64,000 nucleotides of DNA from positions 1-64,000 of IMG/VR virus record IMGVR_UViG_3300030329_003334; one strand, 5' to 3'. Shown here one piece after another: positions 3,391 to 63,006 of the stretch (position 1 is the stretch's first letter; the number at the start of each line of letters is the position of its first letter). The notes beneath the pieces are model-generated. The model ran no database searches. It saw nothing but the letters and a program-made list of their open reading frames with translations, and had not been told where the DNA came from. The DNA comes from a virus. The translations under genes were made by a program, and so were the position numbers.

Positions 3391-4662
3391 ATGGATAATG
3401 TAAAAAAGTTAAGAGAACATCTGCTAACAAAGGGCAGAGACAAAAGTTACAATGAGTTGGCCGAGCTTTATCAGATTAAAGATAAGGCTGGGCACATCTC
3501 AGGAGAAAGAGTAAGAGGAGTATGGAGACGATTAAAAGTTTCTAGAGACCCTCAATCAGATAAGAACCTTCCAAAGGTTGTTAATGAAAACGGTAAACAA
3601 TTTATCGACTACTCTGGATCTGAAATTACAACCTTAGAAGACTTGGTTGATACTATTGGTGTTAACCTTGACTTCTGGGATGTTAAAAGTTTTAGGGCTT
3701 CGACCTGGCAAGATTTTAATGGAGATACAAAGTATGCTGTAAGAGCAAGTTTTGATCAAAGTAAAGAAGCTAGAGATAAAGTACGTGAAGAATTTATAGA
3801 GGAAGCTATTAAGCATTCTCCTAAATATAAACCCGTAAAATACCCTAAAGCTACAAGTAAAGAGAAAGTTGCATATGAAGTTAACTTACCAGATTTACAT
3901 TTAGGTAAGTTAAGTTGGGGAAAGGAAGTAGGACATAAATATGATGTTAATATAGCTAAGTCTATTTTTGTTCAAGCAGTTGATAAGTTATTAGCATATT
4001 CTCAGAACTTTCATATAGATAAGATAATTTTTCCAATAGGAAATGATTTACTTAACTCAGAAGGTTTGACAAGTGCTACAACAAAAGGAACGCCTCAACA
4101 AGATGATGTAAGATGGCAACGATCTTTTACAATGTGTAGAGAGATGCTTGTAGAAGTTATTGATAACTTAAGACTAGTAGCGCCTGTAGAGGTAATAATA
4201 GTTCCAGGTAATCATGATTATGAGCGGATGTTTTACATAGGTGATGCTATATATGCTTGGTATCATAACTGTGATGAGGTGGAAGTTAATAACGATCCTT
4301 CACCAAGAAAGTATACAACTTATGGAGTAAATTTGATTGGTCTCACACATGGTTCTAGCGAGAAGCAAACTGATCTGCCTTTGATTATGGCTTCAGAAAG
4401 ACCAGAGTTATGGGCAAAAGCAACTCATACTGAGTGGCATATAGGTCATCTACATAAAGCCAAATCTATGAACTGGGTAGATATAGATGAGAGGTTTGGT
4501 ACGATAATAAGGATATTACCTTCCTTATCTGGAACAGATGCTTGGCATCATGAGAAAGGGTTTGTTGGTAATACTAGGGCCGCTCAGGCATATGCTTGGG
4601 GAAAAGAAACTGGATACAAAGGTCACTTCCAGGTGAATGTTAATGAATTAAAATTAAATTAA
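3391..4662 (+). CDS. Calcineurin-like metallophosphoesterase with N-terminal HTH-like region
   Basis: DLH, GND, GNHD, HG and GHLH motifs in canonical order. Confidence 0.88.
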   Translation: MDNVKKLREHLLTKGRDKSYNELAELYQIKDKAGHISGERVRGVWRRLKVSRDPQSDKNLPKVVNENGKQFIDYSGSEITTLEDLVDTIGVNLDFWDVKSFRASTWQDFNGDTKYAVRASFDQSKEARDKVREEFIEEAIKHSPKYKPVKYPKATSKEKVAYEVNLPDLHLGKLSWGKEVGHKYDVNIAKSIFVQAVDKLLAYSQNFHIDKIIFPIGNDLLNSEGLTSATTKGTPQQDDVRWQRSFTMCREMLVEVIDNLRLVAPVEVIIVPGNHDYERMFYIGDAIYAWYHNCDEVEVNNDPSPRKYTTYGVNLIGLTHGSSEKQTDLPLIMASERPELWAKATHTEWHIGHLHKAKSMNWVDIDERFGTIIRILPSLSGTDAWHHEKGFVGNTRAAQAYAWGKETGYKGHFQVNVNELKLN

Positions 4663-60145: not shown

Positions 60146-60742
60146 TTAATACCTGTAATGTCCTGTTATTTTCCAATCAAATAAACAATCTTCAATTACT
60201 TGTCCATAACCTATGTTATGTATCACTTTGTATTCAGAGTGATAGTTGCTTGGTACATTTACTACTATACCAATATGATTTAATCCTCCTCCTAAATCCC
60301 AGGTTACAATATCACCTGGTAAATATTTAGTTGGATTAGGTATTGTCGGCAATGATTCTCCATATCTTTCAAATAATGTTTGAAGATTTGGTACTCTTCT
60401 ATGATCTATATTTGGATCAACTTTATCATCTGTTAATTGATAACAATTTAGACCTATTTCTCTAGTGTACTTAATATCTTCATGTATTAATTGTTGTAAA
60501 TCAATACCTAATTTCCTATAAGCTCTTATAACAACGTCAGTACATACACCTATGTTATCTGGTACATCACCCATTGGATAATCTATTGCATAATAAGAAC
60601 CATCATACTTTATAGTCCAATCTTCCAATGATTTCGCTGCTACTGCTAATTTATCATAAAAGCTAGGATTGTCTTGTGCATTTATATTTAAAAATATAAA
60701 TAAACAATAACTAATAATCAATAAAATTCTATTCGTTTTCAT
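60146..60742 (-). CDS. DUF1287 (YijF-like) secreted protein
   Basis: Signal peptide INA-Q; GVCTDVVIRAYR, IDHRRVPNL, GDIVTW, HIGIV, HNIG. Confidence 0.9.
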   Translation of the reverse strand: MKTNRILLIISYCLFIFLNINAQDNPSFYDKLAVAAKSLEDWTIKYDGSYYAIDYPMGDVPDNIGVCTDVVIRAYRKLGIDLQQLIHEDIKYTREIGLNCYQLTDDKVDPNIDHRRVPNLQTLFERYGESLPTIPNPTKYLPGDIVTWDLGGGLNHIGIVVNVPSNYHSEYKVIHNIGYGQVIEDCLFDWKITGHYRY

Positions 60743-60991: not shown

Positions 60992-61010
60992 ATCATTTAA
61001 ATATTAATAT

Positions 61011-61174
61011 AAAAAGAACAGTACTAATAAATCCATGTATCTTAGCGGTATTTATAAAGTATTTTCTTGAATTTAATCAAGACGTTTTATACTATTTATA
61101 TCTACGGTTATAAATAATAATCACTGATCAAGTGATATTTAAACTAACTGTTCAATGTCACACCTAAATGTGAC
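61011..61174 (-). ncRNA. Multibranch structured element + U5
   Basis: GAACAGU/ACUGUUC closing stem; inner AUCACU/AGUGAU, UAUUUAUA/UAUAAAUA, UCUUGA/UCAAGA; leading GUCACA/UGUGAC hairpin. Confidence 0.6.
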
Positions 61175-61178
61175 TAGT

Positions 61179-61388
61179 TTATTTTATTCTTTTGTTTTTA
61201 TTTGGGATTATATCTGCATATGCAAACACAGCAGCTGCAAATAAAAAGATTAATGAGTAGATTAAACAGAAATTACTCTGAAATGACCCACTGTTAGATC
61301 CATATAATCCTACATACATTAATAAGAATGCCTGTATAACAGACATGATTGATCCTATTATGTATTTGTTCTTACTTATTTTCTTCAT
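61179..61388 (-). CDS. Two-TM small membrane protein
   Basis: Two hydrophobic helices. Confidence 0.7.
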   Translation of the reverse strand: MKKISKNKYIIGSIMSVIQAFLLMYVGLYGSNSGSFQSNFCLIYSLIFLFAAAVFAYADIIPNKNKRIK

Positions 61389-61424
61389 GATTACTCTTTT
61401 TATAGTCTTTTATTCTATTAAATT

Positions 61425-61513
61425 AAAGAGTACACAATAGTAATGTCCCACAGAGTTATTACTTCAGTGTGGAACTGTGTTTGTCCTCTCCATTACTATT
61501 GTGATTACTCTTT
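61425..61513 (-). ncRNA. Long stem-loop (8 + 13 bp), RNase III-site-like
   Basis: AAAGAGTA.CACAATAGTAATG / CATTACTATTGTG..TACTCTTT. Confidence 0.6.
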
Positions 61514-61560
61514 ATGTTATTGCTATACTATATTAATGTATAGTGTTGTATGTTGTATTA

Positions 61561-61606
61561 AAAAACAAGTGAAATACCCCTGTTGAGAGGTATAACACTC
61601 GTTTTT
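61561..61606 (-). terminator. Terminator-like hairpin
   Basis: AAAAACGAGUG..AUACCUCU-CAAC-AGGGGUAU..CACUUGUUUUU; G-U pairs on - strand. Confidence 0.65.
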
Positions 61607-61724
61607 GTTCAGATTAAGCATTAACTGTTCGATTCTTAACCAAATCAATGGAAGAACGGATGCATAGCTTCCGTATAATCTGTTATATTCTACTTATAGT
61701 AGTAAGAGTTTGAGCAAAGCTCTC

Positions 61725-61967
61725 TTACGAGAACTTTAACCACGTGAACTCAATCACTTCACCAGTTTCTTCGTCCGTGACTGAAGAGACTTCAGTGTGA
61801 ACTTTAGTTGCGCCTTCAATATTGAGATAGTCGCCTATCTCAGGATTGATGCCTTCCTTCAAGTTGGTGAAGCCAACTGTAGATTGAATAATGTCACCCA
61901 TTTGTTGCTCAACGGCAACAGTGGCTGCTTTGCCACTTTCTGATACATACAAAACTTTTGCTTTCAT
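61725..61967 (-). CDS. First gene of the leftward block, small beta protein
   Basis: 80 aa; visibly higher GC than the rest of the window. Confidence 0.75.
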   Translation of the reverse strand: MKAKVLYVSESGKAATVAVEQQMGDIIQSTVGFTNLKEGINPEIGDYLNIEGATKVHTEVSSVTDEETGEVIEFTWLKFS

Positions 61968-62109
61968 AATTTCGATTTTAGAATTTCATACGGGGACTAT
62001 CCCCGCACAAAACTGAGTGGGAGTCTTTGATAGTGGTGGTTTATGATCTCGAATATATATATATTTTTATTTTTTTTCTTCAAAATTTTTTTTTAGAATT
62101 TTTTTATTG

Positions 62110-62117
62110 TATATTTG
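62110..62117 (+). promoter_or_regulatory. Bacteroidota -7 box upstream of candidate sRNA
   Basis: TATATTTG(CA) after a T-rich tract. Confidence 0.6.
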
Positions 62118-62121
62118 CATA

Positions 62122-62330
62122 TCATTAGTTTATAACTAAGACACCTCGCCAGGAGAAAAAAGGGTTTAATGAAGCGGGGCAACTACGTCTTATGATATAT
62201 ACAAATCATACTATATATCACAACTGTTCTTAATTGAACAGAAAAGATCCATGGAGATCTCTTCTTCGGAAGTTCTTGGGAAAATTCAAACGGCACAAAA
62301 AAATCGGGTGGGGGATAAGGTGTCGTGTAT
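62122..62330 (+). ncRNA. Stand-alone structured RNA candidate (~200 nt)
   Basis: GACACCU/AGGUGUC closing stem, four inner hairpins including C(UUCG)G; own promoter; no ORF. Confidence 0.65.
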
Positions 62331-62360
62331 CTAGTAGAAGTATAAATACTTAATAAAAGT

Positions 62361-62391
62361 TTTGGTAATTAAAATAAATGTTATATATTTG
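62361..62391 (+). promoter_or_regulatory. Consensus Bacteroidota sigma70 promoter
   Basis: TTTG-N19-TATATTTG. Confidence 0.85.
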
Positions 62392-62414
62392 CATTGAATT
62401 GCTATATAATAGTT

Positions 62415-62792
62415 ATGAAAAGATTGAAGAAACAGAATGTTAATAGAAAAGAGTTCTACCCACAATATCTTAAATTAGTAAATGTGATATTGCCTAAACC
62501 TCTTACTGCAAAGGAGATTGAAATACTGTCTGCTTTTATGGAGTTAGAGGGGGATTTAGTGGAAAGTGATAGATTCGGAACTCAGGCTAGAAAACTTGTT
62601 AGGGAGAAATTTGGGTTTAAGAAACATTCTAATATAGACAATTATATAAAATATTTTAAAAGAAAGGGGATTTTGTATATTGATAAATCTGATAATAAGT
62701 TAAAAGTTATTGGAAGTATTGATATACCTAAAGAAGAAAAAGAAGTCGAGTTATCATTTAATTTTACATTTAGTGATGGAGGAAATAAGTAA
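62415..62792 (+). CDS. Putative winged-helix DNA-binding protein (start MKRLKK)
   Basis: LTAKEIEILS...RKLVREKFG...NYIKYFKRKGIL. Confidence 0.6.
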   Translation: MKRLKKQNVNRKEFYPQYLKLVNVILPKPLTAKEIEILSAFMELEGDLVESDRFGTQARKLVREKFGFKKHSNIDNYIKYFKRKGILYIDKSDNKLKVIGSIDIPKEEKEVELSFNFTFSDGGNK

Positions 62793-63006
62793 AAATACTG
62801 GAATAGATAGTCTTATCCAAATGGGTAAAGAAGAAGCCATTGAAAAAAGAGGTAATGCAAAGTTTTTAATTATAAATCCTTTAGGGTCTATGGTTTTAAA
62901 AGAAATACTAGCACTTGAAGATACTATGGAATTACCTAAGTTTTATAAGGGATTAGAGGTAGTTTATACAATAGATCAGTATGAAGAAGTCGCAAGAGTT
63001 TATTAA
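62776..63006 (+). CDS. Hypothetical protein (start MEEISK)
   Basis: Overlapping chain. Confidence 0.55.
   Translation: MEEISKNTGIDSLIQMGKEEAIEKRGNAKFLIINPLGSMVLKEILALEDTMELPKFYKGLEVVYTIDQYEEVARVY

Follow-up and report, generated by a model that had tools for sequence, protein, structure and literature searches.

We have analyzed a non-coding locus in a virus genome (IMG/VR record IMGVR_UViG_3300030329_003334), of which the window, as the term is used here, is the first 64 kb (64,000 nucleotides). The record is complete at 94,021 bp and its ends repeat each other over 117 bp, forming a terminal repeat at 1/94021. It contains an ORF of 4,528 amino acids, and this ORF, together with matches to portal, terminase and capsid proteins, identifies the source as a crAss-like phage. 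Genes on the minus strand, DNA polymerase among them, occupy 40.3-62.0 kb. The plus-strand genes start at 62.4 kb with a 125-aa protein (phrog_16323), an HU/IHF-like protein and small proteins, in that order; further along the same module lie the large terminase (70.9 kb), the portal (73.0 kb) and the major head protein (79.7 kb). This co-directional late module runs from 62.4 kb to 94 kb and continues into 1-40 kb, for a total of about 70 kb. A divergent gap of 447 bp (61968-62414) separates the replication module from the late/structural module and holds the RNA gene described here. GC skew changes sign at this strand switch, and the G+C content is 33-41% in the RNA segment as against 18-28% in the flanking spacers. 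One point of setting is to be corrected: the RNA heads a late/structural module, with terminase, portal and capsid genes downstream, and not an early one.

The first gene of the late module (62415-62792, plus strand) encodes the 125-aa protein, for which AlphaFold2 gives a model with a pLDDT of 86 and Foldseek returns weak matches to the winged helices of Fur, LexA and MarR; it is thus predicted to be a winged-helix protein. It is 60-74% identical across the marine clade, and a homologue 40% identical to it (KT876724, 1753-2112) is encoded by FpV4 and Fpv1-3, cultured phages of Flavobacterium psychrophilum in which the RNA models described below find no match. On the other side of the gap, near the start of the leftward module, a DUF1287 protein (60146-60742, minus strand; E = 3e-58) includes a weak CHAP-like stretch and may be a cell-wall hydrolase.

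Two features precede the RNA within the gap. The more distant is a second conserved non-coding element (61985-62055, no strand assigned), which lies across an A/T-rich spacer from the RNA. It consists of a hairpin with a 3-nt loop, CGGGGA-CUA-UCCCCG, and then GAGUGGGAGUCUUUGAU...CUCGA, a segment of the general form GGGGA.UUUGAU...GGU.G...CUCGA. This element is highly conserved in the close relative L013, where the hairpin reads UGGGGA-AUA-UCCCCA, and it is recognisable in most phage loci (GUAGGG...CCCUAC in L141). No leftward TAnnTTTG box was found near it. The second feature is promoter P1 (62077-62117, plus strand), made up of T tracts at 62077-62085 and 62092-62098 and a Bacteroidota-type -7 box, TATATTTG, at 62110-62117, exactly where the box had been reported. 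Plain TAnnTTTG boxes number 159 in the 94-kb genome, whereas the layout of two T tracts and a -7 box occurs there once, at the promoter of the RNA. In most of the related phage loci, too, the RNA comes after comparable A/T tracts. The probable transcription start is the A at 62124, 7 nt past the -7 box; an A stands directly before the first hairpin in 22 of 23 aligned relatives. Since this hairpin begins 5-18 nt past the -7 box, usually right after the A, it should lie at or near the 5' end of the transcript.

The next gene has a promoter of its own, promoter P2 (62361-62391, plus strand), with the same box, TATATTTG, at 62384-62391 ahead of the ATG at 62415, as the initial annotation had also noted. 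Between the last hairpin of the RNA and the next ORF a TAnnTTTG box is found in 22 of 25 related loci, so that the RNA, which was described as promoter-driven, need not be the 5' UTR of that gene. The spacing between the G-rich box of the RNA and the next promoter ranges from about 25 to about 190 nt among loci, and in three of them (L023, L156 and L193) the next -7 box starts only 2-6 nt past the last hairpin. Within the crAss-like clade the RNA precedes the 125-aa winged-helix gene in every locus that has enough downstream DNA, and in some loci an extra gene is inserted between the two. No site resembling an intrinsic terminator was found in 61600-62800, nor a U run after the last hairpin in the relatives; polymerase starting at promoter P1 should therefore enter the late genes unless the RNA is cut or transcription is terminated in some other way. 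The description of the segment as free of ORFs is nearly true; it contains only a 37-aa frame with a GTG start on the minus strand and a 39-aa frame with a TTG start on the plus strand. A reading in which the G-rich tract serves as the Shine-Dalgarno site of a small ORF was rejected, because start codons are not conserved.

Searches of the RNA catalogues gave no known family. Comparison of 61000-63000 with Rfam 15 by cmscan, at E values up to 10, returned chance-level matches only; the best of those overlapping the RNA were ceN113 (22.3 bits, against a gathering score of 40) and TCL6_1 (16 bits, against 60). The families covered include pRNA, 6S, 6S-Flavo, tmRNA, riboswitches, ROOL and GOLLD. 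ARAGORN finds no tRNA or tmRNA gene in the whole window, in agreement with the earlier remark that the RNA is not tRNA-like. A BLAST search of the region and of the RNA of one relative against 50,697 phage records yielded nothing relevant. A resemblance of short segments to 16S rRNA (GGCUAC..ACGU, AGUAAU) was dropped, since the order of the segments differs and no rRNA model matches. The single-sequence fold energy is unremarkable, with z = -1.74 on the plus strand (11 of 200 shuffles were as good) and -2.84 on the minus strand, and the case for an RNA therefore rests on comparison with relatives.

Such relatives were obtained in several ways. The closest, L013, is 82% identical over the whole divergent gap, and when the two are aligned by eye the RNA core is far better conserved than the surrounding spacers. 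The syntenic search suggested in the initial annotation was carried out with the downstream 125-aa protein, and the loci fetched in this way carry a recognisable homologue of the RNA. A degenerate pattern search of IMG/VR produced about 25 distinct related sequences in phage contigs. With a second pattern, 70 stretches were collected from metagenome contigs, mostly marine, and 68 of these, representing 45 distinct sequences, match the model of the 5' domain described below; this set is largely separate from the IMG/VR set, with several members lying on the same contigs as IMG/VR loci. The genome collections contributed two Chitinophaga genomes and a phage contig inside a Nanoarchaeota bin. The latter, L162 (NZCU01000008.1), is a 7.75-kb crAss-like phage fragment, the same DNA as L013/L035 and the closest relative of the window, and it was probably misbinned into the Nanoarchaeota MAG under which this contig is deposited. 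Two covariance models were used. Model R1 started from the four closest sequences and a structure drawn by hand, and all matches were aligned to it; model R2 describes the 5' domain alone and was applied to the metagenome matches. Plain MAFFT alignment with RNAalifold had recovered only one of the helices, P2.

Covariation shows that the transcript is a row of seven local hairpins (P1, P2 and A to E), without a long-range closing stem. The 5'-terminal hairpin P1 (helix 1; 62125-62139, UUAGU at 62125-29 with ACUAA at 62135-39) had escaped the initial annotation. All 5 of its pairs change on both sides, and it is 98.8% paired in the 45 distinct metagenome sequences. It is followed by the core of the 5' domain (62140-62192), which consists of GACA, hairpin P2 with its conserved loop CA.GA.AA...AUGAA, and C.ACUACGUC (62180-89). 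The P2 helix (CCUCGC at 62144-49 with GCGGGG at 62174-79) is 99.4-100% paired, and 5-6 of its 6 pairs change on both sides; its purine-rich loop and ACUACGUC are nearly invariant.

The four inner hairpins that had been proposed, A to D, are indeed present, and compensatory changes keep all four in relatives. Hairpin A (helices 3 and 4; 62193-62220) pairs UGAUAUAUA at 62193-62201 with UAUAUAUCA at 62212-62220, and the close relative L013 has an A-U to U-A swap in it. Hairpin B (helix 5; 62224-62241) pairs CUGUUC at 62224-62229 with GAACAG at 62236-62241, with changes on both sides at 6 of 6 pairs. Hairpin C (helix 6; 62245-62260, AGAUC at 62245-62249 with GAUCU at 62256-62260) has the loop CAUGGA, is 97.7% paired and shows changes on both sides at 5 of 5 pairs. 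Hairpin D (helix 7; 62261-62272, CUUC-UUCG-GAAG, 62261-64 with 62269-72) does so at 4 of 4. These hairpins vary in length among relatives. Hairpin D ranges from 4 to 9 bp, hairpins A and B are absent in two clades, and A is missing from the L006/L030 and L138 clades; the middle of the RNA consequently looks like a spacer or scaffold.

Downstream of hairpin D, the single-stranded linker UUCUUGGGAAAAUUCAAA (62273-62290) contains GGG and a AAUUCAAA motif that are kept across clades. The conserved unpaired linkers between hairpins can be summarized as C.ACUACGUC and GGGAAAAUUCAAA (the latter also given as GGGAAUUCAAA). The last hairpin, E (helix 8; 62291-62325), pairs CGGCAC at 62291-96 with GUGUCG at 62320-25 around a 23-nt loop composed of an A run and GGGUGGGGGAUAAG. 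Its pairing stands at 99.1%, both sides change in 5 of the 6 pairs, and in other clades its arms read AGCAC/GUGCU, AUCAC/GUGAU, AACUC/GAGUU or GGCCGC/GCGGUC. The G-rich loop of hairpin E is conserved, with the consensus GGGAGGGGAUAAG. Two further pairings were considered and rejected: a pseudoknot of the P2 loop (AGAAAA) with the linker UUUUCU pairs no better than shuffles do, and a 3-bp GAY/GUC pairing proposed by RNAalifold is invariant on both sides and has no covariation support.

Over the 41 pairs of the full fold, 95.7% of the pair cells in 27 distinct sequences are standard, compared with 65.5 ± 1.1% after shuffling of the 3' partners and 35-46% after shifting them by 1-3 columns; because this 27-row alignment was fitted to model R1, the pairing figures are somewhat inflated. 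The structure is thus conserved among relatives, a point on which the initial annotation had made its own proposal depend. Changes on both sides are seen in 39 of the 41 pairs in the same 27 sequences. In the metagenome set, aligned to R2, hairpins P1 and P2 are 99.5% paired against 70.7% in shuffles (45 distinct sequences), and the sequences of the arms can also be read directly in the raw loci. G-U cells outnumber A-C cells by 30 to 14 in the full fold, and P1 and P2 of the metagenome set have about 20 G-U cells against 2 unpaired cells. The excess of G-U over A-C indicates that the folded strand is the plus strand.

The same comparison does not bear out the architecture first proposed, in which GACACCU (62140) and AGGUGUC (62324) close the whole RNA, with further pairing of CUCGCC to GGUGGG. 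The 11 pairs of this stem are paired in 70.5% of cases, compared with 70.0% in shuffles, and no excess covariation across the family supports a multiloop closed by a 5'/3' stem. The single-sequence minimum-energy fold does use GACACCU/AGGUGUC. The bases in question pair locally instead, CCUCGC with GCGGGG in P2 and GUGUCG with CGGCAC in E; the 3' arm of hairpin E changes along with its local 5' partner, while the 5' GAYAC stays invariant. The closing stem may form as an alternative conformer in this particular phage but, judged by the alignments, is not a conserved feature of the RNA family.

We conclude with high confidence that 62124-62325 on the plus strand is a real structured RNA and the representative of a new family. 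The signature of its 5' domain, namely hairpin P1 directly before GAYAC, a 6-bp P2 around a CA.GA.AA...AUGA loop, and C.ACUACGUC, is present in the window RNA, where model R2 reaches 71.9 bits (62124-62191), and is shared by the 23 sequences of the seed and by 68 from metagenomes. The window RNA likewise has the 3' hairpin, whose stem covaries and whose loop is G-rich, of the GGGAGGG type; this loop is found in all phage-type members. The RNA is single-copy in the phage genome. Neither R1 nor R2 matches the cultured phages phi14:2, crAss001, crAss002 and FpV4.

The 5' domain by itself also matches mobile elements of bacteria, so crAss-like phages, which the initial annotation had envisaged as its setting, are not the only one: the RNA is also carried by marine contigs with integrases and, in a diverged form, by three Bacteroidota genomes. 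On the marine contigs L174, L234 and L189 (L174:3600-5560, L234:1200-3240, L189:390-2450) the order is a tyrosine integrase with Arm-DNA-bind_5 and SAM_5 domains, an HTH_17 excisionase-like protein of 86-88 aa, and the RNA. L174 and L234 cease to be homologous some 230 nt past the RNA, which looks like the boundary of an integrated element. In Chitinophaga sp. CF118 (L166:11793-14800, L167:4432-6003) two large serine recombinase genes bound a region of roughly 6 kb that contains a diverged, longer RNA. None of the small ORFs in this region matches a family, and a RecQ gene and sugar-nucleotide genes lie beyond it. In another genome of the Chitinophaga family, and in a near-identical metagenome contig, the RNA is 0.5 kb from two tyrosine integrases; the copy in C. 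ginsengisoli has a tRNA 0.75 kb away and, immediately downstream, an ApeA-type HEPN gene. The neighbours are convergent to the RNA in Chitinophaga and in one other genome of its family. The bacterial form retains the 5' domain and a CGGAGGG tract, the latter in a setting different from the phage E loop, and has two additional hairpins, one with an AGUAAU loop and the other terminator-like, with a U run. Apart from the nearby tRNA, the bacterial versions have no match in Rfam. Neither the upstream element (61985-62055) nor the T tracts accompany the RNA into the integrative elements.

Occurrence of the same RNA in unrelated gene contexts agrees with its proposed independence of the next gene. 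Its presence on unrelated integrative elements beside recombinases suggests, moreover, that selection acts on the RNA itself and not on its neighbours. Among 151 genomes of the Chitinophaga family only 2 match the RNA model, and in a sample of 151 genomes from the phylum no other genome does; such rarity in host genomes marks the RNA as cargo of mobile elements and not as a housekeeping RNA of the host. The family is, then, uncatalogued and carried on mobile elements of Bacteroidota; in its general kind it belongs with the orphan structured RNAs already known from phages and mobile elements.

As to function, we tentatively prefer, while granting that it may well be wrong, a free-standing molecule that would act in trans. 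Host RNA polymerase would start at A62124 from promoter P1, and the position of the RNA at the head of the late/structural module suggests that it would be made when that module is on. The covarying hairpins would provide a nuclease-resistant scaffold and spacer, and the near-invariant unpaired motifs, chiefly the G-rich E loop and the P2 loop, would bind a partner from the host or from the element, either a protein or a C/U-rich RNA. What leads us to this reading is that the RNA has its own promoter, that it travels between contexts without its neighbours, and that its unpaired loops and linkers are conserved on a scaffold that covaries. Scanning the phage genome for duplexes with the E loop revealed no outstanding target site; the top sites reach -25.6 kcal/mol and, the antisense strand of the RNA gene itself excepted, none is singled out.

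The RNA could also act in cis, as a leader of the late operon that folds at the 5' end of transcripts from a strong promoter P1, a possible although rather doubtful explanation. It might then render polymerase resistant to terminators, by analogy with the put RNAs of HK022 or with EAR RNAs, or stabilise the ~70-kb message, suggestions that we regard as equally doubtful; it is about as questionable whether promoter P2 would be only basal and whether the RNA of integrative elements would head an operon after excision and circularisation. In the phage loci the RNA always heads the co-directional module with terminase, portal and capsid genes, no terminator follows it, and where the next -7 box comes 2-6 nt past hairpin E (L023, L156 and L193) read-through is nearly unavoidable. 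That L174 and L234 lose their similarity about 230 nt past the RNA is as would be expected if the RNA points out of the element. A leader would, however, be dispensable where the first gene has its own consensus promoter, as it does in 22 of 25 loci, and known antiterminator RNAs are much smaller, whereas 4 of the 7 hairpins here are dispensable spacers. The convergent neighbours in the Chitinophaga loci also oppose action in cis, but since in the integrative elements the RNA lies near the apparent end of the element, and a gene could follow it after excision and circularisation, the argument that they offer for action in trans is weak there. A quite unlikely alternative is that the RNA is an origin transcript or replication primer: the transcript from promoter P1 would form a stable RNA-DNA hybrid at the G-rich tract and be processed to a primer, and the A/T-rich tract and the element at 61985-62055 would, in an equally unlikely extension, be the unwinding and recognition parts of the origin. 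Such an origin would suit a divergent strand switch with a sign change in GC skew, adjoined by an (AT)n/T-tract region and a conserved non-coding element, and the 3' part of the RNA is G-rich; the missing terminator would be expected, and as every mobile element needs an origin the spread to integrative elements would be explained. The skew change, however, is fully confounded with the change of coding strand, and the loop that contains the G tract is closed by a covarying stem, which favours a folded RNA over a hybrid. The upstream element and T tracts, moreover, stay behind in the phages, and no iterons were found; a search for iteron-like direct repeats near the RNA in phage and bacterial loci gave none that was convincing.

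A role in DNA packaging is very unlikely. The RNA might work with the packaging machinery, loosely in the manner of phi29 pRNA, or the region might serve as a recognition site beside a winged-helix, small-terminase-like gene and IHF-like genes, and it is just as improbable that small integrative elements copy the RNA so as to be packaged by a helper phage. The cos site of lambda adjoins the gene for the winged-helix subunit Nu1 and uses IHF, and phage satellites copy the packaging signals of their helpers. The RNA, for its part, is directly upstream of winged-helix and IHF-like genes at the head of the operon with terminase and portal, and the small integrase-excisionase elements that carry it could be satellites. 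Against this, the 117-bp terminal repeat of the record lies at 1/94021, away from the RNA, the winged-helix gene is 8 kb from the terminase gene, the covariation fits a single-stranded fold and not a double-stranded protein site, and neither pRNA nor any other Rfam family matches. It is most improbable that the locus encodes no RNA at all and consists of a cluster of inverted repeats in the DNA, together with G-rich boxes, to which regulators of the two divergent promoters bind, or of a small protein gene. Both the upstream element and the E loop do carry GGGGA-type boxes on the plus strand, and winged-helix and IHF-like genes are adjacent. But the arms vary freely while pairing is kept in seven helices, which is unlike the evolution of protein half-sites; G-U cells outnumber A-C cells, and loci differ several-fold in the spacing between the G box and the next promoter. 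A small gene is opposed by the gain and loss of whole hairpins whose lengths are not divisible by three, and by frames of only 37-39 aa with non-ATG starts. Finally, the RNA may be a portable module shared by lytic crAss-like phages and integrase-excisionase elements for the same step on free DNA, either RNA-primed replication or packaging recognition, which we consider unlikely. If the packaging version were true, the integrative elements would be satellites with the RNA signal of their helper, a mimicry of cos/pac at the level of RNA.

Several known RNAs offer points of comparison with the free-standing molecule that we prefer. The Cellulophaga crAss-like phage phi14:2 expresses two abundant intergenic ncRNAs, at levels above those of most genes, whose function was left undetermined (Drobysheva et al., bioRxiv 10.1101/2020.03.07.982082). 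The window RNA resembles them as a promoter-driven intergenic RNA of a marine crAss-like phage with a Bacteroidota host. The phi14:2 RNAs are seen at the earliest time sampled and lie at junctions g004-g006, among low gene numbers, whereas the window RNA heads the late module and has a host-type promoter. Furthermore, R1 and R2 find no match in the 100-kb phi14:2 record (KC821624), and the motifs were not seen in it. These RNAs are the closest published analogue, and by the R1 and R2 models they are not homologous.

The pR' 6S RNA of lambda and the put RNAs of HK022 are structured RNAs of 70-190 nt located directly behind the promoter of a long operon, late or early. The window RNA is also a short structured RNA right behind a promoter that heads an operon; the likeness is positional and no homology is claimed. 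The lambda 6S transcript has a strong intrinsic terminator at its end and no conserved fold, and the window RNA, in contrast, has no terminator. The put RNAs are composed of two hairpins and act in cis on polymerase, unlike the window RNA with its seven hairpins and a separate promoter for the first gene. The pRNA of phi29 (Rfam RF00044) is a molecule of ~170 nt with its own promoter that acts in trans on a protein machine and has a 5'/3' closing helix and kissing loops. It shares with the window RNA the status of a phage-encoded structured RNA with its own promoter, action in trans being only proposed for the latter; the closing helix is unsupported in the window RNA, which has no Rfam match at E values up to 10. 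ColE1 RNA II and the mitochondrial LSP transcript, which ends at CSBII, prime DNA synthesis through a persistent hybrid made by their G-rich 3' part. The window RNA is similarly a promoter-driven, folded RNA with a G-rich 3' part, its G tract, however, being held in the loop of a covarying hairpin. ROOL and GOLLD are likewise conserved orphan RNAs, supported by covariation and found on phages and mobile elements; the window RNA is much smaller and simpler, and has no match in Rfam.

Crass-like phages are among the most abundant phages known, and to our knowledge the timing of their late genes, the start of their replication and the packaging of their DNA are largely unknown. Few non-coding features at the junction between replication and structural genes are as well conserved in the marine clade as this RNA, and the comparative support for it is unusually clean. 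It is a defined object of 200 nt with precise helices and conserved loops, amenable to probing, pull-down, mutation and entry in an RNA catalogue. A minor observation concerns phi14:2 (L136, KC821624), in which non-coding sequences at about 1810-1850 and 4470-4500 contain tRNA-like T-arm sequences, GGTTCGAATCC and GGGGGTTCGAATCCCCCCGACTCCAC; the latter, as far as its sequence allows one to judge, looks like the 3' end of a tmRNA or tRNA.
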